Source: Ruminococcus sp. (lineage in GTDB: Bacteria; Bacillota; Clostridia; Oscillospirales; Ruminococcaceae). Taken from it: a stretch of 64,000 nt of DNA. Below, piece by piece: positions 5,383-49,433 of the stretch. Location: NCBI GenBank assembly GCA_021199375.1, contig JAJQIB010000020.1, positions 28,931-92,930 on the forward strand. Reading direction: 5' to 3'. The notes below the pieces were generated by a model. The model was given only the letters and a program-made list of their open reading frames with translations, had not been told where the DNA came from and ran no database searches. Each line of letters starts with the position of its first letter. Positions within the stretch are counted from its first letter, which is position 1. A program made the translations under genes and the position numbers.

Positions 5383-6383
5383 GCAAAAGAAAAATGAGAA
5401 TAAAAGTTATTTTTACAGGAGGCACGATAGGCAGCAAAATTAACGATGGATTTATTCGTCCTAATGGCGCTCCTATGACAATTATTGAAAACTACAAAAA
5501 ACAGTATGACAATGACTGCGAGTTTGAAACGCTTGAACCATTTGAAATATTAAGTGAGGAAATCACCGGAGATTATATGCTTCTACTTGGTCGTTGTGTA
5601 CGACAAGCACTTGACGATTCAGATGCTGTTATAATTACTCATGGCACCGATACCATAGCCTACACCTCAGCATTTTTAGGCTATACCTTTTCTGATGCAA
5701 AAAAGCCTATAATCCTAGTATCATCAGGATATCCGCTTGATGACAAACGATCTAACGGCAATAAAAACTTTACAGCTGCGGTAAGCCTTGCTTATGAACG
5801 AATTGGCGGAGTTTATGCTGTTTGGTGTGATGGAAAGCAAACGCAGGTACACCTTGGCACTAGACTCTTACAGCAAGCTCCTTACAGTGATAAACTAACA
5901 AGCGTTGACAACAGATATTTTGGCACTATTGAGCAAGGCAAATTCTATCCTAATGAATGTGGTCAGGCAGAAAATCATGGCGTTCGGCTGTTTTTAAGTA
6001 ATAATTTGCGAGAACTTAAAACACTTAGCGGATTTGGAAGTGTGCTAGATTTGCCATGTAGACCTAACATGTACTACCCTTCACTAACAAAAGAGGTTTC
6101 AGCAGTGTTACTCGAAAGCTACCATTCAGGTACTCTTTGTGCAGACGAGCGATTTATGTCTTTTATAAATGAAGCTAAACGACTTGACATACCTGTTTTT
6201 ATATCAGGAGCAAATGGACGTGATACAGACTACGAAACGGTAAAAAAATATCGTGAGGCGGGAGTATTTGCACTTCCTGTGGCATCACCTGCAGCCATGT
6301 ATGTAAAGCTTTCACTTATAGCATCAATAGGTGCAGACGCTATAGAGCTTATGAAGCTTTGCTGTGGTGGAGATTATATTTAA
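5379..6383 (+). CDS. ansA: L-asparaginase, type I-like
   Basis: TGGTI and HGTDT catalytic motifs. Confidence 0.85.
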   Translation: MSKRKMRIKVIFTGGTIGSKINDGFIRPNGAPMTIIENYKKQYDNDCEFETLEPFEILSEEITGDYMLLLGRCVRQALDDSDAVIITHGTDTIAYTSAFLGYTFSDAKKPIILVSSGYPLDDKRSNGNKNFTAAVSLAYERIGGVYAVWCDGKQTQVHLGTRLLQQAPYSDKLTSVDNRYFGTIEQGKFYPNECGQAENHGVRLFLSNNLRELKTLSGFGSVLDLPCRPNMYYPSLTKEVSAVLLESYHSGTLCADERFMSFINEAKRLDIPVFISGANGRDTDYETVKKYREAGVFALPVASPAAMYVKLSLIASIGADAIELMKLCCGGDYI

Positions 6384-9174: not shown

Positions 9175-11006
9175 GTGAAAATACAAATAATGTAAGAGCC
9201 ACAAATAGACCTCCTATGGGAGGAAGAGGTCCGGCAAGAGGTATGGGTGCTGGAGAAAAGCCTAAAAATTTTCGGACATCAATTTTAAAGCTTGTAAACT
9301 ACGCTAAACCATTTTGGACAGTTGTTATAATCGCGATAATAACAGAAATGTTAAGCGTTGTTACAAGACTTATAGGCCCAAACAGACTGAGCGATATTAC
9401 AGACCTTATTTCTGAGGGACTAACAGGAGAGATAGATCTAGATGAGATTGTCTCAATTTGTTGGTTCCTGGTAGTCCTCTATATTGCAGGAACACTACTT
9501 AACTACTGTACCGGACTCATAATGACAATTGTTACACAAAGAATGAACAAAAGCCTTAGAAGTGACATTAGTATAAAAATAAACAAGCTTCCGGTATCCT
9601 ACTATCAGACAACATCAACAGGCGATGTTCTTTCGAGAGTAACGAACGATGTTGATATGATAGGACAAACAATGCAAAACAGTGTTTCGTCACTTGTTTC
9701 AGCTGTTACAATGTTTATAGGCGCAGTTGTAATGATGTTCTATACAAACTGGATTATGGCACTTACAGCAGTAGCTGCTTCACTGATTGGATTTGTTTTT
9801 ATGATGCTAATTATGAGCAGATCTCAAAAATACTTTAGCGCTCGTCAAAAATGGTTGGGCGAAATGAACGGGCATATTGAAGAAATATACACAGGTCATA
9901 ACGTAGTTAAGCTATTTTGCAGTGAGGATAAGGAAAAGAAAACCTTTGATTATCTAAATCAAAAAATGTATGATAGCAACTGGAAATCACAGTTTTTATC
10001 AGGACTTATGAGACCGCTTATGAGCTTTGTCGGAAACTTTGGATATGTAGCTGTTTGCGTAGTAGGTGCAATGCTTGCAATAAATGGAAACATCACTTTC
10101 GGTGTAATTGTAGCATTTATGGTATATGTAAGACTCTTTACCACTCCCCTTTCGCAATTAGCACAGGCTGCAACAAACCTTCAATCTACAGCAGCTGCTG
10201 CGGAAAGAGTATTTGAATTCTTAGAGGCACAGGAAATGGAAGATGAAGCTTCAAAGAATGCACAGCCGAGTGAGGTCAAGGGCGAGATCGAATTTAAGAA
10301 CGTTAAGTTTGGATATACAAAGGATAAAATCATCATTCACGACTTTAGCAAGAAAATACTTCCCGGTCAAAGTGTTGCTATTGTAGGTCCTACAGGTGCA
10401 GGTAAAACTACTATGGTAAATCTGCTTATGAAGTTCTATGAACCTAACAGTGGTGAGATAATCATTGATGGAGTGCCTACATCACAGATGAAGCGTGAAA
10501 CAGTACATGATATGTTCGGTATGGTTTTACAAGACACATGGCTATTTGAGGGTACGGTACGTGAAAATCTAACCTACGGAAAAGAAAATGTAACAGATGC
10601 ACAGCTCGATGAAGCTTGCAAGGCTGTGGGACTATACCACTTCGTTAAGACACTGCCAAAAGGATATGACACGCTTATAGATGACAAGCTAAATCTTTCT
10701 ATTGGTCAAAAGCAGCTTATGACTATTGCAAGAGCTATGGTTGAAAATGCGCCAATGCTCATACTTGATGAAGCAACATCATCGGTTGATACACGTACAG
10801 AGGTATTGATTCAAAAAGCTATGGATAAGCTAACGGAAGGCAGAACCTCATTTGTTATCGCTCACAGACTTTCGACAATTAAGAATGCGGATGTTATTTT
10901 GGTTATGCAGCATGGCGATATTGTTGAAAGCGGAACACATGATGAGCTGCTGGAAAAGAACGGCTTTTATGCTCAGCTTTATAACAGTCAATTTGATGTA
11001 GCATAA
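9171..11006 (+). CDS. ABC exporter ATP-binding/permease subunit 2
   Basis: GPTGAGKT, LSIGQKQ, ILDEATSS; 4-nt overlap with subunit 1. Confidence 0.93.
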   Translation: MSENTNNVRATNRPPMGGRGPARGMGAGEKPKNFRTSILKLVNYAKPFWTVVIIAIITEMLSVVTRLIGPNRLSDITDLISEGLTGEIDLDEIVSICWFLVVLYIAGTLLNYCTGLIMTIVTQRMNKSLRSDISIKINKLPVSYYQTTSTGDVLSRVTNDVDMIGQTMQNSVSSLVSAVTMFIGAVVMMFYTNWIMALTAVAASLIGFVFMMLIMSRSQKYFSARQKWLGEMNGHIEEIYTGHNVVKLFCSEDKEKKTFDYLNQKMYDSNWKSQFLSGLMRPLMSFVGNFGYVAVCVVGAMLAINGNITFGVIVAFMVYVRLFTTPLSQLAQAATNLQSTAAAAERVFEFLEAQEMEDEASKNAQPSEVKGEIEFKNVKFGYTKDKIIIHDFSKKILPGQSVAIVGPTGAGKTTMVNLLMKFYEPNSGEIIIDGVPTSQMKRETVHDMFGMVLQDTWLFEGTVRENLTYGKENVTDAQLDEACKAVGLYHFVKTLPKGYDTLIDDKLNLSIGQKQLMTIARAMVENAPMLILDEATSSVDTRTEVLIQKAMDKLTEGRTSFVIAHRLSTIKNADVILVMQHGDIVESGTHDELLEKNGFYAQLYNSQFDVA

Positions 11007-18559: not shown

Positions 18560-18754
18560 ATGTCATATAGTCAAAGTACATATGAGAAAACGTGTAAATA
18601 TATTTTTGAGTACTTTGCCGACTGTCTTGCAATGAGCAGAATGGGAATATACTTTAATTCTAATGCTATTGATTATTTGGAATGGAAAGGAGTTACAATA
18701 ACATACAATGAATTTATGAGGAGAACGATATATGGACTTAAATTACACTACTAA
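18560..18754 (+). pseudogene. Probable remnant of a phage MuF toxin C-terminal (zincin-like) domain
   Basis: Follows the linker-promoter; EYFADCLA resembles the third-ligand helix of zincins; no HExxH left. Confidence 0.4.
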
Positions 18755-18936
18755 GACCACGCTTGAAGAGCATAAGTACTTATGCAAGGCAGAAGAAGAA
18801 ATTTTAGATAAAGGTGCAACCGAAAAGAGATGCCCTAGATGTGGGGACGAAATCATTATTGAGTTTTTTCGGTTCTTCTTATTCAGTCAGGTGTAAAACT
18901 TCTAATTGCATACATGCGGATTTTAGAGGGATATAA
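18732..18936 (+). pseudogene. Small Cys-rich (CPRC...C..NC) immunity-like gene with a +1 T frameshift
   Basis: Removing one T from T6 at 18864-18869 gives MDLNY...KRCPRCGDEIIIEFFGSSYSVRCKTSNCIHADFRGI*. Confidence 0.65.
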
Positions 18937-18958
18937 ACTTAATCAGGAGGATACACAA

Positions 18959-19126
18959 ATGAAAATAGATATGTATAAAAGATACAAGTTAAAAGATGGG
19001 CGTACAGGATACACTATTGAATCTTTTGATAGTGGCAAGGCTTACATGATAGAACTTGACGATAAATCAGAAGAAGATTGGATGCCAATAGTAAAAAAAG
19101 AGGATATAGTTGAACAATTAAATTGA
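18959..19126 (+). CDS. Small phage-type protein (immunity-like), 55 aa
   Basis: aggagg RBS; MKIDMYKRYKLKDGRTGYTIESFDSGKAYMIE resembles small genes found after phage MuF genes. Confidence 0.7.
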   Translation: MKIDMYKRYKLKDGRTGYTIESFDSGKAYMIELDDKSEEDWMPIVKKEDIVEQLN

Positions 19127-19141
19127 TATTTAATATTTCTC

Positions 19142-19175
19142 AGCACTCACACATATGTTGTGGGTGCTTGCTTTT
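19142..19175 (+). repeat. 34-bp terminator-like repeat, copy A
   Basis: agcactcacacatatgttgtgggtgcttgctttt; identical to the reverse complement of 46642-46675 and similar to 44037-44069. Confidence 0.9.
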
Positions 19176-19200
19176 GCATAAACTAAACGAACAAAAGCTA

Positions 19201-19229
19201 TTGACAATCACCAAAAAAAGGCGTATAAT
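19201..19229 (+). promoter_or_regulatory. Consensus sigma70 promoter, homologous to 44317-44345
   Basis: TTGACA-N17-TATAAT; shares 25 identical nt (aaaaaaggcgtataataaaagcagt) with the minus-strand copy. Confidence 0.8.
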
Positions 19230-19391
19230 AAAAGCAGTTAAAGTAAAGTGTTCTGATGAAAATCAGGGATGAGCAGTAAAAAATCGACAGAATAGATTGT
19301 CGATTAAGCTACTTATGCATCAACAATATTACACAATAATTATTTGGAAAGGAGAATAAGATTATAGTAGCTTTACTATAATCATGTAAGA

Positions 19392-27680: not shown

Positions 27681-27767
27681 TTTCGGTACAAGAAAGCGAC
27701 ATTTCAGTACACTTTGCGGCACTTTTGTGTAAAATCTATTGAAAAAATCGCCAGCGTGTGCTATGAT
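27681..27767 (+). promoter_or_regulatory. LytTR (AgrA)-box direct repeats and agrB promoter
   Basis: TTTCGGTACA (27681) and TTTCAGTACA (27702) 21 bp apart, upstream of TTGAAA-N17-TATGAT (27739-27767). Confidence 0.7.
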
Positions 27768-27850
27768 TTTTGCAGGAAGTGATTCAGAAATGATTTTTGC
27801 AGGAAGTGATTCAGAAATGATTTTTGCAGGAAGTGATTCAGAAATGATTT
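27763..27850 (+). repeat. 27-bp perfect tandem repeat x3 (plus a partial) spanning the agrB RBS and start
   Basis: Unit atgatttttgcaggaagtgattcagaa at 27763, 27790, 27817; encodes MIFAGSDSE. Confidence 0.95.
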
Positions 27851-39126: not shown

Positions 39127-40791
39127 ATGGCAAAGCAAACTACTTACAATGTCGGGATCTATGTGCGTTTGTCGCAGGAGGACGAGCGTGCAGGCGAATC
39201 CCTTTCGATTGAAAATCAGAAGAAGATGCTGACGGAATATGTCAGCAGACAGGAGGGCTGGAATCTCATCGAGATCTGCGAGGACGACGGCTATTCGGGA
39301 ACAAGTTTCGACAGACCCGGTGTCAGACAGCTTCTTGAAGATGCAAAGTCGGGAAAGATAAATTTGATCCTCTGTAAAGATTTATCCAGATTTGGTCGTA
39401 ATTACATCGAAGTCGGTCAGTATATCGACTATATTTTCCCTTCGTTCAATATTCGCTTCATCGCCCTGAGCGACAACGTGGATACCCTCGATAGAAACAG
39501 CTCGGCAATGGATCTTATGCCTGTGATGAATTTGTTCAACGAATGGCACGCCGCCAATACTTCAAAAAAAGTACGAAGTGTTATGGCGGCAAATTCAAGG
39601 CAGGGCAAGTATCTGGCGGCTTCCGCTGCTTACGGTTACATCAAGGCTGATGATGAAAAGCATACGCCTATCATTGATGAAGAAGCCGCCGTTATCGTAA
39701 GACGTATATTTGAGCAGAGGGCAAGAGGGTTAAGTCCGAAGCAGATCGCTATACAGCTTAACAAGGACGGCATCGCAACTCCCTCAGATCATCGCTATCA
39801 GCTTAAAGGCAAAGAAAATCCCCTTGTGACTTCACATCTGTGGAATGACTGTATGGTGCGTGGCATTCTTAACAATGAGATTTATATCGGAAATCTCGCA
39901 CAGCAGAGAGTAACAACAGTATCCTACAAAAACCACAAGCAGATACGCAAGGACAGGTCGGAGTGGGTCATCGTAGAAAATACCCATGAGCCAATCATTT
40001 CAAGGAAACTGTGGGATAAGGTTAGAGAGGTCGAAGCATCGGTGAGTATTGGTAAAATTACAAAGGAGGGTGTGATTCGCCCTTTGTCGGGCTTCATGTA
40101 CTGCCCTGAATGCGGATATAAGATGAAAATGAACAGAACTATGCACACCACAAAGAAGCGAGGTACTTACGAGACGGTCAGCTATCGCTGTGGTACTTAT
40201 GTGAGAAGTGGAATGGACGGCTGCACTCCTCATTCTATTTTGGAAAGAGTTATTTCAAAGGTCATTGTTGATGATATTAGAGCAAAGGCAAGGCTTGCCG
40301 TTGAGGACGAGGACACACTCCGTGAAGCCGTCCGCAAGCGCAGACAGGCTACTGCCGATGCGGAGAGCCAGCGCAACATGAGAGAACTTCGTGAGGGTGA
40401 GAAACGGCTTGCACAGCTTGAAACGCTTATCAGCAAGACCTATGAAGAAAAGCTCCTCGGTACTGTACCCGAAGAACTCTGCGTGAAAATGCTGAATCAG
40501 TATCTTGATGAACAGAAGATGCTGAGAGAGAAAGTTGCTGTGCTGAAAGAAAAGTGTGAAAGTGCTGAACAGGCTGAAAAAGATGTTGACAGGTTCGTTG
40601 AAAACATCAAAAAGTATGTCGATATTCAGGAGCTTACCCGTGAAACTTGTCTGGAACTTATTGAGTACATCGTGGTCGGAGACCGTCCCGAAATCAAGGG
40701 TGAGGACAGGCAGATACACATATTCTACAAGTTCCTTGATAAGGGGCTTACGGAAAAAAGAAACATTCTGCTGCCGCAGAATGTGGAGTAA
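39127..40791 (+). CDS. Large serine recombinase (TnpX/TndX-like integrase)
   Basis: IYVRLSQED, DDGYSGT, KDLSRFGRN, recombinase domain, CPECG...C zinc ribbon, coiled coil. Confidence 0.95.
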   Translation: MAKQTTYNVGIYVRLSQEDERAGESLSIENQKKMLTEYVSRQEGWNLIEICEDDGYSGTSFDRPGVRQLLEDAKSGKINLILCKDLSRFGRNYIEVGQYIDYIFPSFNIRFIALSDNVDTLDRNSSAMDLMPVMNLFNEWHAANTSKKVRSVMAANSRQGKYLAASAAYGYIKADDEKHTPIIDEEAAVIVRRIFEQRARGLSPKQIAIQLNKDGIATPSDHRYQLKGKENPLVTSHLWNDCMVRGILNNEIYIGNLAQQRVTTVSYKNHKQIRKDRSEWVIVENTHEPIISRKLWDKVREVEASVSIGKITKEGVIRPLSGFMYCPECGYKMKMNRTMHTTKKRGTYETVSYRCGTYVRSGMDGCTPHSILERVISKVIVDDIRAKARLAVEDEDTLREAVRKRRQATADAESQRNMRELREGEKRLAQLETLISKTYEEKLLGTVPEELCVKMLNQYLDEQKMLREKVAVLKEKCESAEQAEKDVDRFVENIKKYVDIQELTRETCLELIEYIVVGDRPEIKGEDRQIHIFYKFLDKGLTEKRNILLPQNVE

Positions 40792-40826
40792 AATATTTTT
40801 GGGTGTGCTTTTATGGGGTTCTCCTC

Positions 40827-41955
40827 TTTAGGTCACTATACCTCGCTTACAGATAACGACAATATGACCTTGCAAAAGAAGCTTGGATATACATCTGTTT
40901 GGATGGAGGTTGGAACAGCAGGAGGAACACGGTTTACAAATGCGTTGTATTCTGCAAAATACAAGCTAGTGAAATCAAACAGCAGTGAGGATTCGATATA
41001 TTCGTCTAATGGATATAGTATTGTAGAAATGCCATATAGCTACGGACTGGGAATAATCACTGACAGCGACCTGAGTGATTGTGAAGAAATACCCGATGAG
41101 CTTACTCGTGCACAAATTCAACAGTATATCTTTTCATCTCTTTATAATGACAAAACGCTTATAACTGAATATGATTATAACGCTGAAACATCATCAGGTA
41201 TTAGCTATAACAGCAACAATGGTAAATATGCAATTTCAAATGGTGCTTGCATTTATTACACGATAGACGTTTCTGACAGACAGGTGCTGTATGCAGACTG
41301 CTTTGATGATATTTCTAATAATCTGTCAGAGGACTATTATGATAGTCTTGAGGTATCTGTAAACGGAATTACAATATCAAATAGTTATCCTTCAAGCACT
41401 AAGAACTGTTTACTTGAGCTTGGGGAGTTTGAAGATGAAACGGTTACCGTTACAATAAAATGTAAAAGTCAAATTAAATGCTACTCGTTTGGAGTGTTTA
41501 GCCTTGACAGCGAAGTATTAGAGGAGGCTATAGAAGCAACCGACTGTGCAAATTTAACCTATGATGGAAGCAAGCTCATTGGAAATACTACAGTTAGTGG
41601 AGAAAAGACCTGCGTTTTGAGTGTTCCTTATAATGATGGATTCACTGTAAGGGTAAATGGTGAGAAGGTTGAGTATAGTCGTGTTTTCTCTGATTTTATA
41701 TCATTTGAGCTTGACAATGGCGAAAATGAAATTGAAATAAGCTTTATCCCAAAAGGCTTTGTGCCTGGTCTTGTTATCACAATAGTAGGTGCGGCAGTAT
41801 TTGTTTTGTATATCCTATTTAAAGATAGGATTGAATTTAAAGACATAGTAGGTAAAATATCTATTATTGCTGTTGGAGCTGTCGTAGTAATAGGATTCAT
41901 TTTAGTATACGTTTTTCCTATGGTGGTAAAAATGTTTACAGCTTTTAAAGAATAA
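40827..41955 (+). pseudogene. yfhO: YfhO-family membrane protein, 3' part
   Basis: GHYTSLT..., LSVPYNDGFTVRVNG, EISFIPKGF C-terminal YfhO motifs; continuous with 25483. Confidence 0.85.
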
Positions 41956-43714: not shown

Positions 43715-43847
43715 TGATCACATATAATTTCCCAGAAAATAAGAACAATATTTGTGCAAACTGATAATTTTTTTCTTATCCCTTGACAAACACACGATAT
43801 TTTGATATAATTATTTAGCACGTTGACGAGATGTCAATTTTAGATAT

Positions 43848-43920
43848 GAGTTATTAGCTCAGTTGGCAGAGCATTTGACTTTTAATCAAAGGGTCCGGGG
43901 TTCAAATCCCCGATAGCTCA
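43848..43920 (+). tRNA. tRNA-Lys (anticodon TTT), CCA not encoded
   Basis: Acceptor GAGTTAT/ATAGCTC, D-arm TAGCTCAGTTGGCAGAGC, anticodon stem TTTGA/TCAAA with loop CTTTTAA, T-arm CGGGG-TTCAAAT-CCCCG. Confidence 0.97.
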
Positions 43921-43922
43921 TT

Positions 43923-44036: not shown

Positions 44037-44069
44037 AAAAAGCACCCACACCGTATGTGTGGAGCACTT
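44037..44069 (-). repeat. Terminator-like repeat, divergent copy C
   Basis: Reverse complement aagtgctccacacatacggtgtgggtgcttttt resembles copies A and B. Confidence 0.75.
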
Positions 44070-44084
44070 AAAAAAACTTGTTTA

Positions 44085-44260
44085 TTATTCGATATCAATT
44101 ATTCTCTCTTCGTTAGCAACCCCCTGCAATTTGGATCTGAACAGTGGAACCACGTGGCTGTAGAATTGTTTTCACCGCTCACGTCAAAATAGCTTTTTTT
44201 ACAAACTGGGCAAAGGACTTTCTCGCCTCTTCTTAGCTTATCGAATATGTTTTCTTCCAT
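44085..44260 (-). pseudogene. Small zinc-ribbon immunity-like gene with a 1-nt deletion near the 3' end
   Basis: MEENIFDKLRRGEKVLCPVC...FHCSDPNCRG; a shifted frame ends ANEERIIDIE*, matching the paralog end IIEIE* of 44981-45166. Confidence 0.65.
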
Positions 44261-44316
44261 AAATAGTGCATCCCTTCCGCCAATCGATATCATTGTAGGC
44301 TTCTTTTACTGCTTTT

Positions 44317-44345
44317 ATTATACGCCTTTTTTCTGCAATTGTCAA
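44317..44345 (-). promoter_or_regulatory. sigma70 promoter embedded in a MuF-linker relic
   Basis: TTGACA-N17-TATAAT; reads QLTIAEKRRIIKAVKE. Confidence 0.8.
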
Positions 44346-44408
44346 TTGCATTTGCTCTTTTTGTCAACTGCTTTAGCAGTAATATTTATTGACTTATGTG
44401 TTTTTTGC

Positions 44409-44437
44409 TTGACTTCCACACACTGATGTGATATAAT
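44409..44437 (+). promoter_or_regulatory. sigma70 promoter of the hydrophobic-peptide pair
   Basis: TTGACT-N17-TATAAT with TGn. Confidence 0.7.
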
Positions 44438-44463
44438 AATAACATAGAAAATAAGTGAATACG

Positions 44464-44570
44464 ATGAGTAAGCATATAAAAGAAAAGCAAAGAGCTTTCT
44501 TAAAATTGCAACAGGCGCTAGCTTAATACTCGCCAGTATTGCGAACCTGATAACAGTAATTAAACATTAA
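44464..44570 (+). pseudogene. Short hydrophobic peptide (type I toxin-like), 1 nt short in an A-run
   Basis: Adding one A at 44478-44481 gives MSKHIKRKAKSFLKIATGASLILASIANLITVIKH*. Confidence 0.5.
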
Positions 44571-44624
44571 GAAGCTCTGAGAAGCTTTAAACTCCTCCCA
44601 CATAAGGGGGATTGCTTTCAAATT

Positions 44625-44654
44625 TATTATATCACTAATATTGGAGGTTGTCAA
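44625..44654 (-). promoter_or_regulatory. Antisense promoter candidate facing the upstream peptide gene
   Basis: TTGACA-N18-TATAAT with TGn on the minus strand, overlapping the RBS of 44656. Confidence 0.55.
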
Positions 44655-44655
44655 G

Positions 44656-44823
44656 ATGAAAAAAACTGATATTTGCTTATTAGCGCTAGCTTCTTCGCTG
44701 CTTTTAGCCATTAACACTGATTGGAGCTTGTATTCCAAAATATCCGTAATAACATCGTCAATCTGTTGCATGGCTTGTGGGGTATTGACTATTAAGGATG
44801 CTTTGGACGGTGATGAGGATTAA
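44656..44823 (+). CDS. Small two-TM hydrophobic protein, 55 aa
   Basis: ggagg RBS; MKKTDICLLALASSLLLAIN...SIC. Confidence 0.65.
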   Translation: MKKTDICLLALASSLLLAINTDWSLYSKISVITSSICCMACGVLTIKDALDGDED

Positions 44824-44980
44824 ATAAATCATGCTAAATCAATTGGCATTTTATGGCTATAAAAATAAGGCAATGTAGTTAATTCGACCATTTCAGAAGC
44901 TAGAAATATGAGATAAGAAATAATCAAATGACCAAAGGAACCAAGCCTTGAATTTAATTAGAGAAAAGGCGGTTATGTAT

Positions 44981-45166
44981 ATGTCAGAAGGAAATAATGA
45001 TCTGTTAACCAAATTAAGGAATGAAGAGAAAATTAAATATCCAAAATGCCATAGTGGAAATGTCATTCCATATAATGCCGTTGCAGAAAAGGCTCATTAT
45101 TTTTACTGCTCTAATGAAATCTGTGATTGGTATTTGCAAATAGACCCAATAATTGAAATCGAATAA
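44981..45166 (+). CDS. Small zinc-ribbon immunity-like protein (paralog of 44085-44260; first Cys replaced by Tyr)
   Basis: LTKLRNEEKIKYPKCHSG...AHYFYCSNEICDW...IIEIE. Confidence 0.65.
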   Translation: MSEGNNDLLTKLRNEEKIKYPKCHSGNVIPYNAVAEKAHYFYCSNEICDWYLQIDPIIEIE

Positions 45167-45258
45167 TTAGTTGAGGTTATGTTCGAATCTGAAGCGAAAT
45201 AAGTTTATTAAAGAGTAAAATCTTTAGTGTATACATATGTAGAGAGGTGGCACAAATA

Positions 45259-45435
45259 ATGTCAGTTGTTATCCCAGACTGTACTTCTTGCAAGCATATT
45301 TTTAAAGAAAACGACAGCACTACTTTTTATTGTAGCGCTTTCCCTAATGGAATACCAAAAGATTATTTTTGGGGGAATGTAGATGTACGTAAAATTTTTG
45401 AGTGTGCTAACGGAATCAAATTTGAAGAAGATTAA
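45259..45435 (+). CDS. Small Cys-rich immunity-like protein (CxxC...C.AFP.GIP...C)
   Basis: gagaggtgg RBS; DCTSCKH...CSAFPNGIPKD...ECANGIKFEED; same pattern as 46973-47155. Confidence 0.7.
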   Translation: MSVVIPDCTSCKHIFKENDSTTFYCSAFPNGIPKDYFWGNVDVRKIFECANGIKFEED

Positions 45436-45674
45436 GCAGCATAAAAAGCATATATAAAAAAACACCTACCATCCCTTCATGGCTCAACGTTCTTGCGGGT
45501 TAGCAGCATATTGACTTCTTGAAAGCGTTGTGATCCTCTCTCAAGAAGCAATTGGGAGTAGATTAGTAATGCTTGACTTTTTTTAGAGTGTATGATATAA
45601 TAAGGATATAATAAGGATATAAAAATGAAATTTTACGTTAAATAAGACGACAGGTGTCAGTAAGGAGGATAACT

Positions 45675-45797
45675 ATGGATGAGATGACTGATATGCAATT
45701 CGAAGCTATAATAAATGCGATAATTCAAATAATCAAAGATAATAATAGCAAAGAAGAAACAATTAAAAAAATCGAAGCCTTAATTCATACGAATTAA
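45675..45797 (+). CDS. 40-aa helical peptide (MTDxQF family)
   Basis: aaggagg RBS; upstream TTGACT-N17-TATAAT; MDEMTDMQFEAIINAIIQIIKDNNSKEETIKKIEALIHTN*; absent from the ORF track. Confidence 0.75.
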   Translation: MDEMTDMQFEAIINAIIQIIKDNNSKEETIKKIEALIHTN

Positions 45798-45895
45798 GAC
45801 TTTAGAAAGTCCAAAGAGAGAGGGCGACAAGCTTGCCACCGTCCTCCGCCCCCTATTTTAATACATGGCAAGCAAAATTTAAAGAGGTGATTAAA

Positions 45896-46081
45896 ATGGC
45901 ATATGATGAGAAGGCAAAGCAACGCACAATGAAGTACATGAAAGAAAAACGAGATAAGCTTACTCTCAATTTTCCACTTGGTGATAAAGACCGTTACAAA
46001 GCGTATGCAGAAAGTCAAGGCATGAGTTTAACAGCACTGATTGTTAAGCTTTTGGAAGAGGATATAAAGAGACATGAGTAG
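45896..46081 (+). CDS. Ribbon-helix-helix DNA-binding protein (antitoxin/Arc-like)
   Basis: gaggtga RBS; KLTLNFPLGDKDRYKAYAESQGMSLTALIVKLLEE. Confidence 0.75.
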   Translation: MAYDEKAKQRTMKYMKEKRDKLTLNFPLGDKDRYKAYAESQGMSLTALIVKLLEEDIKRHE

Positions 46082-46093
46082 GGAGATGATTAT

Positions 46094-46396
46094 ATGAGTG
46101 AAAATCATTCAATGACCCCGCAAGAGAAGTATGATAAGGAAAATACTCAATTTGTAGGCATGAAGCTTAGCAAGAAAAACGATGCTGATATTTTAGAAGC
46201 AATTAACGGCAAAGCAAAGCAAACAGAATTGAAAAGACTTATCAGGCTTGGCTTGGGAGAAAGTGCTGAAAGCAGTGTAGGAATGACAGATTATCAGTTT
46301 AAATTCATCTTATCATTAATTAAAGTGTGCGTTGAAACAATGGACAAAAGCGAAGTTATAGATTTGCTTGACAGCTTCATAAATGAGGCTAAATGA
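46094..46396 (+). CDS. RHH-like domain fused to an MTDxQF helical domain
   Basis: TPQEKYDKENTQFVGMKL..KNDADIL...KQTELKRLIR followed by MTDYQFKFIL. Confidence 0.65.
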   Translation: MSENHSMTPQEKYDKENTQFVGMKLSKKNDADILEAINGKAKQTELKRLIRLGLGESAESSVGMTDYQFKFILSLIKVCVETMDKSEVIDLLDSFINEAK

Positions 46397-46519
46397 TTAA
46401 CTTACCAATTACATACAATATTTGTGATTATTTGAGTGAGATATATATTTTGTCATTTCCTTTCGAAAATAAGGGCTATTGCCGGTTAGGCGATGGTCCT
46501 TTTAACTTTCATCAGCATT

Positions 46520-46586
46520 CCTTTCGTTACGCTTTTACGGGGTCGTGTCCCTTTACGAGTTTAGTTTTACGTCATTTCGGACAATA
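46520..46586 (-). ncRNA. Phage scaffold (GP20)-leader-like structured RNA remnant
   Basis: TTGTCCGAAATGACGTAAAACT...GGGACACGACCCCGTAAAAGCGTAACGAAAGGA precedes a truncated ORF (MLMKVKGPSPNRQ*); position after MuF-immunity-terminator matches the scaffold gene slot. Confidence 0.4.
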
Positions 46587-46641
46587 TTAAAAACGCCTGC
46601 AATTGTTTACAAGCGTTGTTTACAGATTTGGTTTTTGGTAT

Positions 46642-46675
46642 AAAAGCAAGCACCCACAACATATGTGTGAGTGCT
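46642..46675 (-). repeat. 34-bp terminator-like repeat, copy B
   Basis: Reverse complement identical to 19142-19175. Confidence 0.9.
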
Positions 46676-46791
46676 TGAAGCGCTTAATCAGAAAGCGCCT
46701 TACCAACTGCAAGACACCTTCAGGAACCCTTTCTGCTCATGGCAGATGGGTGATTGTCTTCCTTATGTATGAGCACTGAAAAAAAGTATTT

Positions 46792-46953
46792 TTAGTTCAC
46801 TGTGTGTTCCGCTGCGTATTCCACTGTGTGTTCCGATAGGCCGATCATATCAAATGGGATCATAGTTTCTTTTTGAAGCTTTAGGAGACCTCGAATTTCT
46901 TTGTCAGAATATCCATATTCCTTTGCCTGCTTTATGAATTCCATTTCCGTCAT
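46792..46953 (-). CDS. 53-aa phage-type small protein
   Basis: MTEMEFIKQAKEYGYSDKEIRGLLKLQKETMIPFDMIGLSEHTVEYAAEHTVN*; absent from the ORF track. Confidence 0.6.
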   Translation of the reverse strand: MTEMEFIKQAKEYGYSDKEIRGLLKLQKETMIPFDMIGLSEHTVEYAAEHTVN

Positions 46954-46972
46954 TTACCATTCACCTTCCTTT

Positions 46973-47155
46973 CTACTCATGGTAGATGGACGGCTTTGGC
47001 AAATTTTCATCCACTTCTATTTCCTTGTCCTCATACCACTCGCATTCTACATCTTCTACGAAAATTTCAGAAGGTATCTCCTCGGGATATTTTTCACACT
47101 TTTTGTGTGGAAACATAAAAAACTTGCATCCAGTGCAATTGGGCATTCTTGCCAT
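46973..47155 (-). CDS. Small Cys-rich immunity-like protein
   Basis: ggagg RBS; NCTGCKFF...KCEKYPEEIPSEIF...CEWYE. Confidence 0.7.
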   Translation of the reverse strand: MARMPNCTGCKFFMFPHKKCEKYPEEIPSEIFVEDVECEWYEDKEIEVDENLPKPSIYHE

Positions 47156-47159
47156 AGCT

Positions 47160-47700
47160 CTAACCTCCAAAGTAATCTTTTATATATTCGTTATAAACGT
47201 CTAGATATTTTGTGGGGACTTTTTCCCATTTATTTAATGCAACGTGCACTTCGTTTAAGAATTCGCCGCCATCTGAATCAACTAATCTACAAAAGCCTTT
47301 CATACAGTGCTTCAGCTTTTTCAATTGAATTTCCATAATTGATTTTTGAATGCATAATCTCATGGTTGACTAAATCGCTAACGTTCTTGCTTTTCCACCA
47401 GTTATCATTAAAGCATTTTTCACATGCGCCGTTCAAGTCATTCAAGCTTTTGCCCCAAAAGTAATCTTTGTTCAAATATAATTGCGTTTTTAGAATGTCT
47501 TGCGATATGTCTTTGCCTTCAAAATTGGTGCTAGCATTTAACAAATAAGTACAATCATCGGGAATTTGACCGATTTCTTTAAACTTATTATACCACCTTC
47601 ACGCCCGATCGTCAACTCCTTATTGCTTTTCCACTTCCCAATCCCGACATTTCCAACTCCGTCAACAGTAACTCTTTTCCTTTGACAATGTAACAATCCA
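47160..47700 (-). pseudogene. Phage minor capsid (MuF-type) C-terminal relic with HExxH metallopeptidase-like toxin domain, two internal deletions
   Basis: RVTVDGVGNVGIGKWK, linker ELTIGREGGII, then in shifted frames ...LVNHEIMHSKINY... and ...GFCRLVDSDGGEFLNEV...DYFGG*. Confidence 0.65.
47587..47615 (-). promoter_or_regulatory. sigma70 promoter embedded in MuF linker codons
   Basis: TTGACG-N17-TATAAT with TGn; encodes LTIGREGGII. Confidence 0.75.
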
Positions 47701-47791
47701 AAAATTTGTAATAAATATTCTTGAAATACTTGACATGAAATCAATTTTATGTTATAATCAAAATATTAAAATTATAAAAGGAGACAATATA

Positions 47792-47977
47792 ATGTTAGAA
47801 AACATAAATAATGACTATTCTATATCGCTTGATGAAGAAATCGAAAATCGTATAAAAACAATGGAGCAACAAGATTATAAATTTGCGCAAAAATTCGCTA
47901 AAAATGACTACATTCTTCTAATCATAGTAGTTATAGTTTGTCTTGTAGGTGTTATCGGCGGAGCATTTATTAAGTAA
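47792..47977 (+). CDS. Small membrane protein, 61 aa
   Basis: aaggag RBS; C-terminal TM segment. Confidence 0.7.
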   Translation: MLENINNDYSISLDEEIENRIKTMEQQDYKFAQKFAKNDYILLIIVVIVCLVGVIGGAFIK

Positions 47978-47993
47978 GGTGGAGTTCTGATAT

Positions 47994-49433
47994 ATGGAGA
48001 AAATGGAGAAAATGGACGTTGATTCGCAAATTCAAAGGGAGGCTTTGTTTGGCTGTGCACCTGTGCTGCAAAGCGAAAGGGTGTATGGATTGTTGGATGC
48101 AATGCTCATCCTGTCTGGCTACTGTATAGCAACATGGAGCTACACTCAAGGCTCTTATTTAGCTACGCTTGTTGGTTTTAAACAGCTGCTTATAGGCGCT
48201 TTTTTAGGAGCAATACTTATGCTTGCTATATATCAGCTGCCGGTCATTCTTTCTGTTCGATACGGAATAGATATATGGATTTGGTTAAAATCCGTGTTTG
48301 GGCACAAAGGCGTTACTCTCATGACAGTCATAATAATTTTGATAAATTATCCATGGTATGCAGTTTGTGCAGATTTATTTGCATCTTCAATGTCAAGCCT
48401 CGCTCAATTAGCCGGAATAGCACTTCCTCAATCAATAGTGCTCTTATTGCGTCTGCTTTGCGTTGCAATAGGCACTTTTATTGCTTATCAAGGATTAGAT
48501 GCTATTACAAAATCCACAAGAATACTAGTTCCTTTACTGCTGGCACTTGGTGTAATGGTGGTCATTGTCGGCTTTTCCTCTGTTCCGTTTAGTGCTATTT
48601 GGAATTATAAGCCTCAGGAAACAGGCTACAACAACAGCATAATTCCATACATAATTTCAATAGAGGCAAATTTTGCTTTTGTCATTACATTAGTAGGAGG
48701 AATGGCTGAGGTTCCGAGGCTTGCTAAAAAAGAAAACTCAGGCTTTTGGGCAGGAGTTATCGGTCAGGGTGTATCAGGCTCTTTTTTTGTTGTAGTGGGA
48801 TCAGTTATGGCGATTGCAATGCAATACGTCACAGGCGAGATGATCGACGATCCAACAGTGATGCTTGCAACATTATCTGTACCTGCGCTTGCATGTAGCT
48901 CGCTTCTGCTTGTAGCATTTGCAAATATAGGTACTCAGGCGGTAGGAGCTTATATTTATGGTGTAATGCTAAAAACTTCATTTAAAAGGCTAAGCTACAG
49001 AATGCTTATAATGATTCTTGCTATATACGCCGCGCTGCTTTGCGTTTGGGGAAAGATAATTGATTATTTCGGATCGTTTTTAACAATAAGTGCTTGTATA
49101 TATGCTCCACTTGCAGCACTTTTATTTGTAGATTTCTTCTTTGTTAGAAAACAGAAGCTTTCACTTCGTTCGGCTTATAAACTAAAGGGCTATAATGCTT
49201 ATGAATATACTAAGGGATTTAACATTGTAGGACTTGCATGTGTTGCAGCCGGCGTTGCAATGTCGCTATTAATCTACAACCCTGTAACCGGAGAGATACA
49301 TAACATGCTGCTTTTCCACTTAACTCCAACAGGGTTTTCCTTTTTGGGAACGGGAGCCTTGTACTATCTATTAAGTCTCATTCCTGCTGTAAGAAAATAT
49401 ATTCTCAGAGATCGAGATGAAATCACTGTATAA
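47994..49433 (+). CDS. Purine-cytosine permease (NCS1) family transporter
   Basis: About 12 TM; SVRYGID, FLTISACIYAPLAALLFVDFF, GFNIVGL motifs. Confidence 0.85.
   Translation: MEKMEKMDVDSQIQREALFGCAPVLQSERVYGLLDAMLILSGYCIATWSYTQGSYLATLVGFKQLLIGAFLGAILMLAIYQLPVILSVRYGIDIWIWLKSVFGHKGVTLMTVIIILINYPWYAVCADLFASSMSSLAQLAGIALPQSIVLLLRLLCVAIGTFIAYQGLDAITKSTRILVPLLLALGVMVVIVGFSSVPFSAIWNYKPQETGYNNSIIPYIISIEANFAFVITLVGGMAEVPRLAKKENSGFWAGVIGQGVSGSFFVVVGSVMAIAMQYVTGEMIDDPTVMLATLSVPALACSSLLLVAFANIGTQAVGAYIYGVMLKTSFKRLSYRMLIMILAIYAALLCVWGKIIDYFGSFLTISACIYAPLAALLFVDFFFVRKQKLSLRSAYKLKGYNAYEYTKGFNIVGLACVAAGVAMSLLIYNPVTGEIHNMLLFHLTPTGFSFLGTGALYYLLSLIPAVRKYILRDRDEITV

Follow-up and report, generated by a model that had tools for sequence, protein, structure and literature searches.

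We analyzed a variable patch that lies beside a tRNA-Lys gene, from position 44044 to about 47700, in a 64,000-nucleotide stretch of Ruminococcus sp. DNA (contig JAJQIB010000020.1; the whole stretch is called the window below). Sequence comparison confirmed that the patch holds three, possibly four, cassettes, each made of the 3′ remnant of a phage MuF gene followed by the Cys-rich gene that trails it in intact phages. In unit 1 the MuF gene has been reduced to a broken domain and in units 2 and 3 to its 15–25 terminal codons, and the small partner genes are retained. We thus read the segment 44044–47700 as a patchwork of orphan cassettes taken from head modules that belonged to different temperate phages, and consider an origin from MuF cassettes very probable. 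The locus has four immunity-type genes, a term that reflects position alone (Cys65, Cys62, ZnR64 and ZnR72), each beside a broken or stub MuF gene. Because each of the small zinc-binding genes has a stub or remnant upstream, all of them are considered MuF partners. An earlier sequence-only reading of this DNA had proposed trimming to a promoter and a small gene, and intact phages and orphan loci in other genomes match that proposal. The same reading regarded the Cys-rich genes as paralogs; this view has to be abandoned, as they belong to two unrelated families, one with the signature CxxC..C..[FY]PxGIP..C (Cys65 and Cys62) and the other made of zinc ribbons (ZnR64 and ZnR72).

Unit 1 occupies positions 47684–46528 of the minus strand. 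Its order was read by three-frame translation and by tblastn with phage proteins, and consists of a MuF2 linker, a broken HExxH domain, the Cys65 gene, a 53-residue gene, two terminators and a decayed GP20-b scaffold leader; every part of the minus-strand order listed previously was found in its place. The linker remnant (47559–47684, QRKRVTVDGVGNVGIGKWK...) includes RVTVDGVGNVGIGKWK, which aligns to the linker behind the Phage_min_cap2 domain of phage proteins, and the remnant was aligned to residues 375–412 of the protein of phage contig L095. A promoter-like site with 11 of 12 matches and a TG is found inside it (47615–47587). The broken domain (47163–47568) is a zincin-like HExxH extension from the C-terminus of a MuF2 protein, with its HEIMH motif at 47364–47350 and a C-terminal part that ends in YIKDYFGG and a stop codon. 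Frameshifts interrupt the MuF remnant near 47590, in the linker, and near 47295–47303, and around 45 residues are missing near 47490, between DILKT and KTQLYL, in comparison with sequences P0001–P0004. The same 45 residues are still present in contig L001 and in X1, one of four related strains (X1–X4, contigs from four metagenomes) whose flanks are 90–97% identical to the window. Downstream lie Cys65 (46973–47170), an intact partner gene of subfamily A of the CxxC family, and a 53-residue gene (46792–46953) that resembles a SinI/MerR helix with sub-threshold score (NCBIfam SinI, E 0.001). Two terminator-like hairpins follow (46592–46677; individually, 46677–46647 and 46617–46592).

The last element of unit 1 is a decayed RNA motif (46583–46528, minus strand) similar to GP20-b (RF03003); the scaffold gene itself is lost. 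The motif retains the CGUAAAA, GGGAC..CCC and AGCGUA blocks and is located ahead of the site where the scaffold gene would be expected. It differs from GP20-b in that the first hairpin is broken, the scaffold gene is absent and the score is sub-threshold (26 bits against an Rfam gathering score of 36.2, with a local E of 0.0015). Two controls support its interpretation as a relic of the scaffold-gene leader, as the sequence-only reading had claimed: in L095 a true motif (43.5 bits) follows the small genes and precedes the scaffold gene, and L086 has a GP20-a motif in the same relative place. Unit 1 retains about 1.2 kb of contiguous head-module order, through the scaffold leader.

The two additional mini-units that had been proposed do exist. 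In unit 2, on the minus strand, a 37-residue open reading frame (ORF; 44238–44351) had been taken as a separate gene. This candidate was rejected, as the ORF represents the final 25 codons of a MuF gene and contains a promoter that matches all 12 positions. The stub (QLTIAEKRRIIKAVKEAYNDIDWRK, 44274–44348) is assigned to a MuF gene of the HE[TQ]KH type by its 52% identity to the MuF C-terminus of L144 (tblastn, E 0.006), and the promoter embedded in it (TTGACA-17-TATAAT) spans 44345–44317. Next comes ZnR64 (44099–44293), a zinc-ribbon partner gene (CPVC...CSDPNC) whose family trails HE[TQ]KH-type MuF genes in phages, and a terminator-like hairpin (44045–44063) ends the unit. Unit 3, on the plus strand, begins with the last 15 codons and the stop of a HEMAH-type MuF gene (RVKSLVYTYVERWHK*, 45212–45259), 73% identical in tblastn to the MuF C-termini of L094 and L115, whose counterpart is RVKSLVDEYIERWRK*. 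The match has an E of 0.09 over the whole window; the probability that a chance match would fall in that particular 50-nucleotide spot can be estimated as roughly 3e-5. The MuF stop overlaps the partner start as it does in the phages. The partner, Cys62 (45247–45435, probable start ATG at 45259), is an intact gene of the CxxC..C..FPNGIP..C type (phrog_33375, E 3e-6), 69% identical to the L094 gene that abuts a 561-residue Phage_min_cap2 protein. A second zinc-ribbon partner gene, ZnR72 (44948–45166, plus strand), was recognized by family alignment and frame translations. It may be preceded by a very degenerate MuF stub (..EFN*RKGG, around 44860–44950), a weak identification. Pfam detected no MuF domain in the window, where only the post-domain linker at 47684–47559 and the stubs of 15–25 codons represent it.

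The arrangement of the intact relatives was established with head modules from IMG/VR contigs; a collection of isolated phages yielded no matches to the HExxH domain or to Cys65, and only weak ones for Cys62 and ZnR64. In L087–L091 and in the high-GC contig L092, the order is terS, terL, portal, a Phage_min_cap2 plus HExxH protein of 607 or 620 residues, a Cys-rich gene, scaffold (PF06810) and major capsid. In the long protein, Phage_min_cap2 covers residues 1–366 and the HExxH domain is terminal; the E of the MuF domain in L087 is 6e-103. The partner of these phages has 60–62 residues with the signature CxxC..C..IP..C, and starts 2–3 nucleotides after the MuF stop. L094–L098 have an identical gene order with extensions of the HEMAH type. 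In the intact relatives the MuF gene sits after the portal gene, and a MuF domain is present in L087, L092, L094, L095, L141 and L144 (PF06152 or PF04233, which correspond to MuF2 and MuF1, respectively, in Jamet et al. 2017, PMC5576092). The earlier reading had suggested looking for phage homologs directly after MuF toxin domains, and such homologs do follow the MuF extensions: a CxxC partner of 57–88 residues ([FY]PxGIP) lies −15 to +43 nucleotides from the MuF stop in all 46 viral loci with downstream DNA. These loci yield 29 different partner sequences, of which one is frameshifted. The family trails MuF extensions of the HE[IM][MA]H type in these loci, and partner subfamilies track domain subfamilies: HEIMH extensions are accompanied by partners with ..LPxAKGR tails, and HEMAH, HELAH and HEAAH extensions by partners with FPNGIP..CNNGI. 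For the zinc-ribbon family, a hidden Markov model found a copy in L139, and a scan of viral contigs then yielded L144 and, afterwards, L146. In each of these intact head modules, a Phage_min_cap2 protein of 546 or 552 residues ends in a HETKH or HEQKH extension. Their ZnR homologs, of 53 or 61 residues, are located 2 nucleotides past the MuF stop in one case and overlapping it in the other. Overall, the zinc-binding partner genes of intact phages encode 53–88 residues and start within a few bases of the MuF stop.

Other features of these modules were recorded. The scaffold and capsid proteins of L146 (3178–4200) and L002 (2142–2309) start with L27-like leader motifs (..DLRLFD.., ..MQFFAE..), and L146 has a Prp-like gene of 94 residues between ZnR and scaffold; leaders of the L27 type are cut by the Prp protease. 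A RAGATH-28 RNA (67 bits, above the gathering score) is found in L087 just upstream of the small terminase gene (5895–5977).

Promoters written into the MuF coding sequence are a recurrent trait. A perfect TTGACA-17-TATAAT site lies inside the MuF 3′ part of L144 (48 nucleotides before ZnR), L094 and L095 (about 290 nucleotides before the partner), and the expected frequency of a site of this kind is around 0.001 per kb per strand. The corresponding promoter of L146 matches 11 of 12 positions, and L087 contains only sites with 10 matches. In L144, in L146 and in the window at both 44345–44317 and 19201–19229, the two hexamers coincide with the same Leu-Thr and Ile-Ile codons. Terminators are found past the partner in L094, L095 and L141. 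These data suggest that the partner is an independent transcription unit whose promoter is borne by the stub. The phage partner would then be self-contained, with a promoter in the MuF 3′ coding end and, often, a terminator after the gene, and for this reason a lysogen could express it without relying on the late operon. The recurring design of stub plus partner may likewise be explained if the stub is, or was, a promoter.

Orphans made of a stub and a partner are also present in at least six other genomes, sometimes as arrays. L086/L003 contains a terS fragment, a truncated MuF2-HExxH gene of 297 codons, the partner and the N-terminus of the scaffold gene, all among chromosomal genes and beside a tRNA gene. 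A HExxH protein of 261 residues that lacks MuF adjoins glgA in L002, and L085 has a lone partner gene. In L022, ZnR, a 63-codon stub that contains a stop codon and a Cys-rich gene follow one another, and L140 has an array in the order ZnR-Cys-ZnR-Cys beside rubrerythrin. Stubs of MuF genes also lie ahead of ZnR genes in L022, L139 and L140. In L142/L143 a 45-codon stub, 96% identical to the MuF gene of phage L141, is located with its partner amid housekeeping genes. This partner (P0042) is identical in the L142/L143 orphan and in the Mu-like phage L141, where it comes after a 490-residue Phage_Mu_F protein. As a separate observation, the lone partner of L085 seems to lie between direct repeats of about 70 bp (9836–10351), visible on the opposite strand as two occurrences of the peptide ..KSFVKLSVLYHTHLENSNS...

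The cassettes turn over between strains. In X1 the segment 44830–45433, which carries ZnR72 and Cys62, is swapped for 766 other bases; X2 and X3 show zero depth over ZnR72 and nearly zero over Cys62. Only X2 has the ZnR64 unit; X1, X3 and X4 lack it. A deletion from 47567 to 48495, which reaches into the permease gene, is shared by X3 and L001, and the HExxH remnant has decayed differently from strain to strain. Selection was examined in the window and X1 through the ratio of nonsynonymous to synonymous polymorphism (pN/pS). Cys65 shows 11 substitutions with 4 replacements, none of them at Cys or EIP residues, and a pN/pS of 0.19, a figure derived from a single pair of strains. The 53-residue gene, which evolves fast, shows 23 substitutions with 15 replacements, and its pN/pS is 1.8.

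A second copy of the terminator and of the promoter-bearing stub exists outside the patch, at 19142–19243 of the plus strand, where it now faces a hydrolase gene. The 34-nucleotide terminator at 46642–46675 is 100% identical, in inverted orientation, to 19142–19175, and the MuF stub and its promoter (44303–44364) recur at 19182–19243 with 84% identity. L001 and X3 join unit 1 to this locus (19142→20725), so that either other strains carry a 27.5-kb inversion between the repeats or the assembly is chimeric. A joint between 44332 and 46642 in X1–X3 was considered as a 2309-bp deletion and rejected, as it corresponds to the paralogous locus 19142–19243. Ahead of the 19142 terminator, at 18732–19126 (plus strand), are a zinc-ribbon-like gene with a frameshift (..RCPRCGDEIIIEFF / GSSYSVRCKTSNC..) and a 55-residue gene with a weak match to DUF4926 (E 0.003).

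One alternative is a plain prophage graveyard: several phages inserted near tRNA-Lys would have been eroded by random deletion, and small genes would survive without function because they are small mutational targets. We regard this explanation as rather unlikely. It draws on the composition of the patch, in which neither an integrase, nor an attachment (att) repeat, nor any other phage gene remains. The absence of portal, terminase, capsid and integrase genes, claimed previously, holds for 43.9–47.7 kb, and a second copy of the tRNA-Lys 3′ end was not found within the window. Signs of decay also fit a graveyard. ZnR72 has lost one zinc ligand, as Tyr takes the place of its first Cys (KYPKC). 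ZnR64 is missing from three strains and harbors +1 and −1 indels in X2. The tail of Cys65 is altered in both the window and X1 by an 18-nucleotide insertion that turns the conserved LPxAKGR into LPKPSIYHE. The pN/pS of the 53-residue gene and the strain-specific decay of the HExxH remnant point in the same direction. Erosion at random does not, however, readily account for the repeated placement of deletion ends immediately before the partner, a pattern found in arrays and in no fewer than six unrelated genomes. Nor does it predict that a phage and a chromosomal orphan share an identical partner protein, that the pN/pS of Cys65 is low, or that two stub copies retain perfect promoters.

A profile search for the HExxH domain against 1.84 billion representatives retrieved 365 clusters, and the domain is C-terminal among the full-length matches listed. 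The N-terminal partners of 78 long relatives were Phage_Mu_F (MuF1) in 42, Phage_min_cap2 (MuF2) in 26, VG15 in 6 and a portal domain in 1. The H, E and H residues are conserved in three domain alignments, and a downstream G and an ExxxE motif are invariant or nearly so. An AlphaFold2 model built with 30 sequences reached a mean predicted local distance difference test score (pLDDT) of 83.5, with a helix at residues 63–79, three strands and helices at 149–165 and 195–207; with 6 sequences the mean pLDDT was 52 and the model was unusable. Foldseek comparison with BFVD retrieved phage proteins named Matrixin, Minor capsid/MuF-like, Metalloprotease, Lethal factor and SprT-like (best E 3e-11), and neither sequence search nor Foldseek fold search found a match in PDB. 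The conserved HExxH, G and ExxxE residues, the predicted fold, the BFVD matches and the confinement to MuF N-termini indicate that the extension is a zincin-like peptidase restricted to MuF proteins, not a recognized toxin.

On these grounds, a working model can be outlined. The partner would be the cognate inhibitor of the MuF peptidase, an ‘immunity’ protein in a loose sense, and a cell that keeps the stub and the partner would neutralize the peptidase brought in with the DNA of a related phage. An immunity role is plausible, and some support for it comes from the universal linkage, the co-diversification of partner and domain, the possession of own promoters, the frequency of orphans and one signal of selection. 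Our confidence differs among the parts of the model. That the partner inhibits a MuF-borne peptidase is a tentative proposal, to which we assign somewhat less than an even chance; a MuF-cassette origin and an inhibitor role, taken together, we consider evenly balanced between true and false. That retention of the cassettes here is adaptive and not a leftover seems unlikely on present evidence. Even more doubtful is the broadest extension, that the partners are an unrecognized class of phage-resistance proteins that inhibit an injected effector carried in the capsid, with promoter-in-stub cassettes that are portable and arrays that give poly-immunity.

A number of observations weigh against an immunity role. 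No Pfam toxin family matches the HExxH extension, and no other toxin-trafficking domain was found in the 78 long relatives, 74 of which have MuF or VG15 N-termini. Given the lack of a Pfam toxin match and the occurrence with MuF or VG15 only, the role of an effector or of a processing peptidase, with either a cognate inhibitor or a cofactor, is equally plausible. The partner families lack matches in Pfam, NCBIfam and PADLOC. No RNA run with the locus was found, and the only runs that contain it are metagenome contigs of unrecorded type. Unit 3 has no promoter in its stub of 15 codons, so that it must depend on the operon promoter at 44409. Lastly, the library of immunity genes proposed by the sequence-only reading stands as a set of orphan partners, defined by position alone, and is weakened by the decay of ZnR72, ZnR64 and Cys65 described above.

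A partner found in every phage could also be a cofactor or an assembly chaperone. More generally, the small zinc proteins might be cofactors, chaperones or regulators, such as a detached SprT-like zinc module or a DNA-binding regulator of the head operon, whose orphans would be inert or domesticated; we consider this explanation improbable. The partner accompanies the MuF gene in 46 of 46 loci and is translationally coupled to it, and the HExxH domain has weak SprT-like matches in both Pfam and BFVD; peptidases of the SprT family carry zinc-binding modules. Furthermore, in the part of Iyer et al. (PMC5512222) that concerns the zincin-like domains of phage polyvalent proteins, autoprocessing is predicted. 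A cofactor deprived of its enzyme has no obvious use, however, yet orphans are frequent and arrayed, and genes with their own promoters and terminators are better suited to expression in a lysogen than to assembly.

Delivery of the cassettes by a dedicated array system bounded by repeats, in place of decay of a prophage in situ, is suggested by two of the orphan loci: in L139 (2258–5530), eight imperfect palindromes of 36 nucleotides (CCTGAATGACCCACCCAAAATGGTGCATCGTTCAAC), spaced 332–682 nucleotides apart beside an HsdR gene, bound small cassettes, two of which consist of a MuF stub and a partner (one Cys-rich, one ZnR), and in L142 (4928–5863) three copies of a repeat of about 35 nucleotides (TATGATGACCGTCAATTTTTGGAGGGGCGTCAACC), at a spacing of about 440, end next to the MuF stub of the orphan partner; such an origin is highly improbable for the locus under study and was rejected because the L139 repeat has no copy in the window, while the contiguous order of unit 1 suits decay in place and the terminator and the stub are the only boundary sequences shared within the window. 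One copy of the L139 repeat and a truncated HEMAH domain form an in-frame fusion.

Comparison with known systems helps to place the orphan MuF cassettes. MuF polymorphic toxins, as described by Jamet et al. 2017 (PMC5576092), have a MuF1 or MuF2 N-terminus encoded after the portal gene, a variable C-terminal extension and a small ORF directly downstream. In that study a small ORF is found next to 89% of toxin-type MuF genes, 20% of MuF toxins carry a metallopeptidase domain, and 75% of MuF toxin domains are common to other families of polymorphic toxins; the word ‘orphan’ is absent from the main text, and the supplements contain no term for the peptidase type. The HExxH extension differs from the toxins of Jamet et al. 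in having no known toxin match and in not being found outside MuF and VG15 proteins, a difference that also speaks against immunity; in addition, the window lacks an intact MuF gene and the partner families lack the database matches cited above. The MPTase domain of phage polyvalent proteins (Iyer et al. 2017, PMC5512222) fits the extension at least as well as the designation ‘polymorphic toxin’. Likenesses, in the sections on this domain, include an N-terminal helix, a three-stranded sheet, the HExxH helix and a Glu in a later helix, together with fusion to MuF and predicted packaging in the virion and delivery into the cell. The same passages mention neither a fusion of MuF with a zincin nor a dedicated small partner gene, and favor autoprocessing or effector roles over a toxin with its immunity protein.

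The orphan MuF cassettes also resemble loci known from bacterial competition. Orphan modules of toxin tips and immunity genes, and polyimmunity loci, were reportedly described by Zhang et al. in 2012 for polymorphic toxin systems (CDI, Rhs), and acquired interbacterial defense clusters of gut Bacteroidales are said to have been described by Ross et al. in 2019. What they would have in common with the patch are protective genes without the full toxin, often arranged in arrays, often with a piece of the toxin gene ahead of them, and variable among strains. In the patch, however, the source is a phage head gene and not a toxin of a secretion system, no full-length gene is near for recombination, and the stub, which bears a promoter, is the extreme 3′ end instead of the conserved part that lies ahead of the toxin tip. 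The partner genes also recall phage morons and superinfection-exclusion genes in having their own promoter and terminator within a late operon; here, however, the promoter forms part of the coding sequence of the structural gene just before it, and the partner gene is tied to one domain of the protein that this structural gene encodes.

C-terminally extended MuF proteins abound in phages of gut Firmicutes, where the extensions may act as toxins against competitors, effectors in the infected cell or processing enzymes. Repeated retention by hosts of only the partner and its promoter would make it probable that the peptidase is active inside the recipient cell and that a host gains by blocking it. 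In that case, two families without annotation, with proteins of about 60 residues, would join the candidate genes for immunity and defense, and a MuF 3′ stub followed by a gene for a zinc protein would become a genomic signature that can be searched for. Should the graveyard explanation be correct, the locus would be an ordinary, well-dissected prophage remnant.

The setting of the patch is as follows. The tRNA-Lys(UUU) gene (43847–43921, plus strand; ARAGORN, with 72.8 bits for the Rfam tRNA model) is the left border of the variable patch, and only small ORFs separate it from an 80-residue membrane ORF and a permease operon, from 47735 onward. The contigs of X1, X3 and X4 depart from the window sequence at 44043, and the patch was delimited as 44044 to about 47700 because related strains diverge after that position. 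Comparison of the locus across species is uninformative, since synteny is not kept beyond DUF815-GNAT(-tRNA-Lys). The window comes from a member of the R. albus/Hominimerdicola group, and its DUF815 protein has its best match, with 77% amino acid identity, in a metagenome-assembled genome of Ruminococcus. Contig L004 belongs to the same strain as the window.

Part of the patch is not derived from MuF cassettes. A promoter-like site (44409–44437) and a hydrophobic ORF of 55–60 residues (44641–44823) head the plus-strand operon, and X1 keeps this segment although the neighboring one has been swapped. An accessory operon with no link to MuF (45573–46501, plus strand) includes a promoter (45573–45601), a 47-residue ORF, the 82-residue protein Arc82 (45833–46081), which resembles Arc/ribbon-helix-helix proteins and has a weak, sub-threshold NCBIfam match, a 100-residue protein (46094–46396) and a terminator (46471–46501). 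In the integrative element MT836843, a homolog of Arc82 adjoins an Abi-like gene and an integrase gene. The 47-residue ORF (45654–45797, MTDMQFEAIINAIIQIIKDNN..) and the last third of the 100-residue ORF (46280–46396, MTDYQFKFILSLIKVCVETMD..) resemble paralogs by eye.

Elsewhere in the window, a large serine recombinase gene (39127–40791) is part of a separate element outside the patch. The segment 33214–40791 has a higher G+C content (0.39–0.49, compared with about 0.36) and contains genes for a resolvase, a relaxase, a NikA-like protein, a NUDIX protein and the above recombinase. It adjoins a 380-residue ORF with a YfhO C-terminus (40813–41955), and looks like an integrative mobilizable element in or beside yfhO. 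Finally, a 34-nucleotide unit (ATGATTTTTGCAGGAAGTGATTCAGAAATGATTT) occurs at 27763–27850 in three perfect copies that overlap at a spacing of 27 nucleotides.

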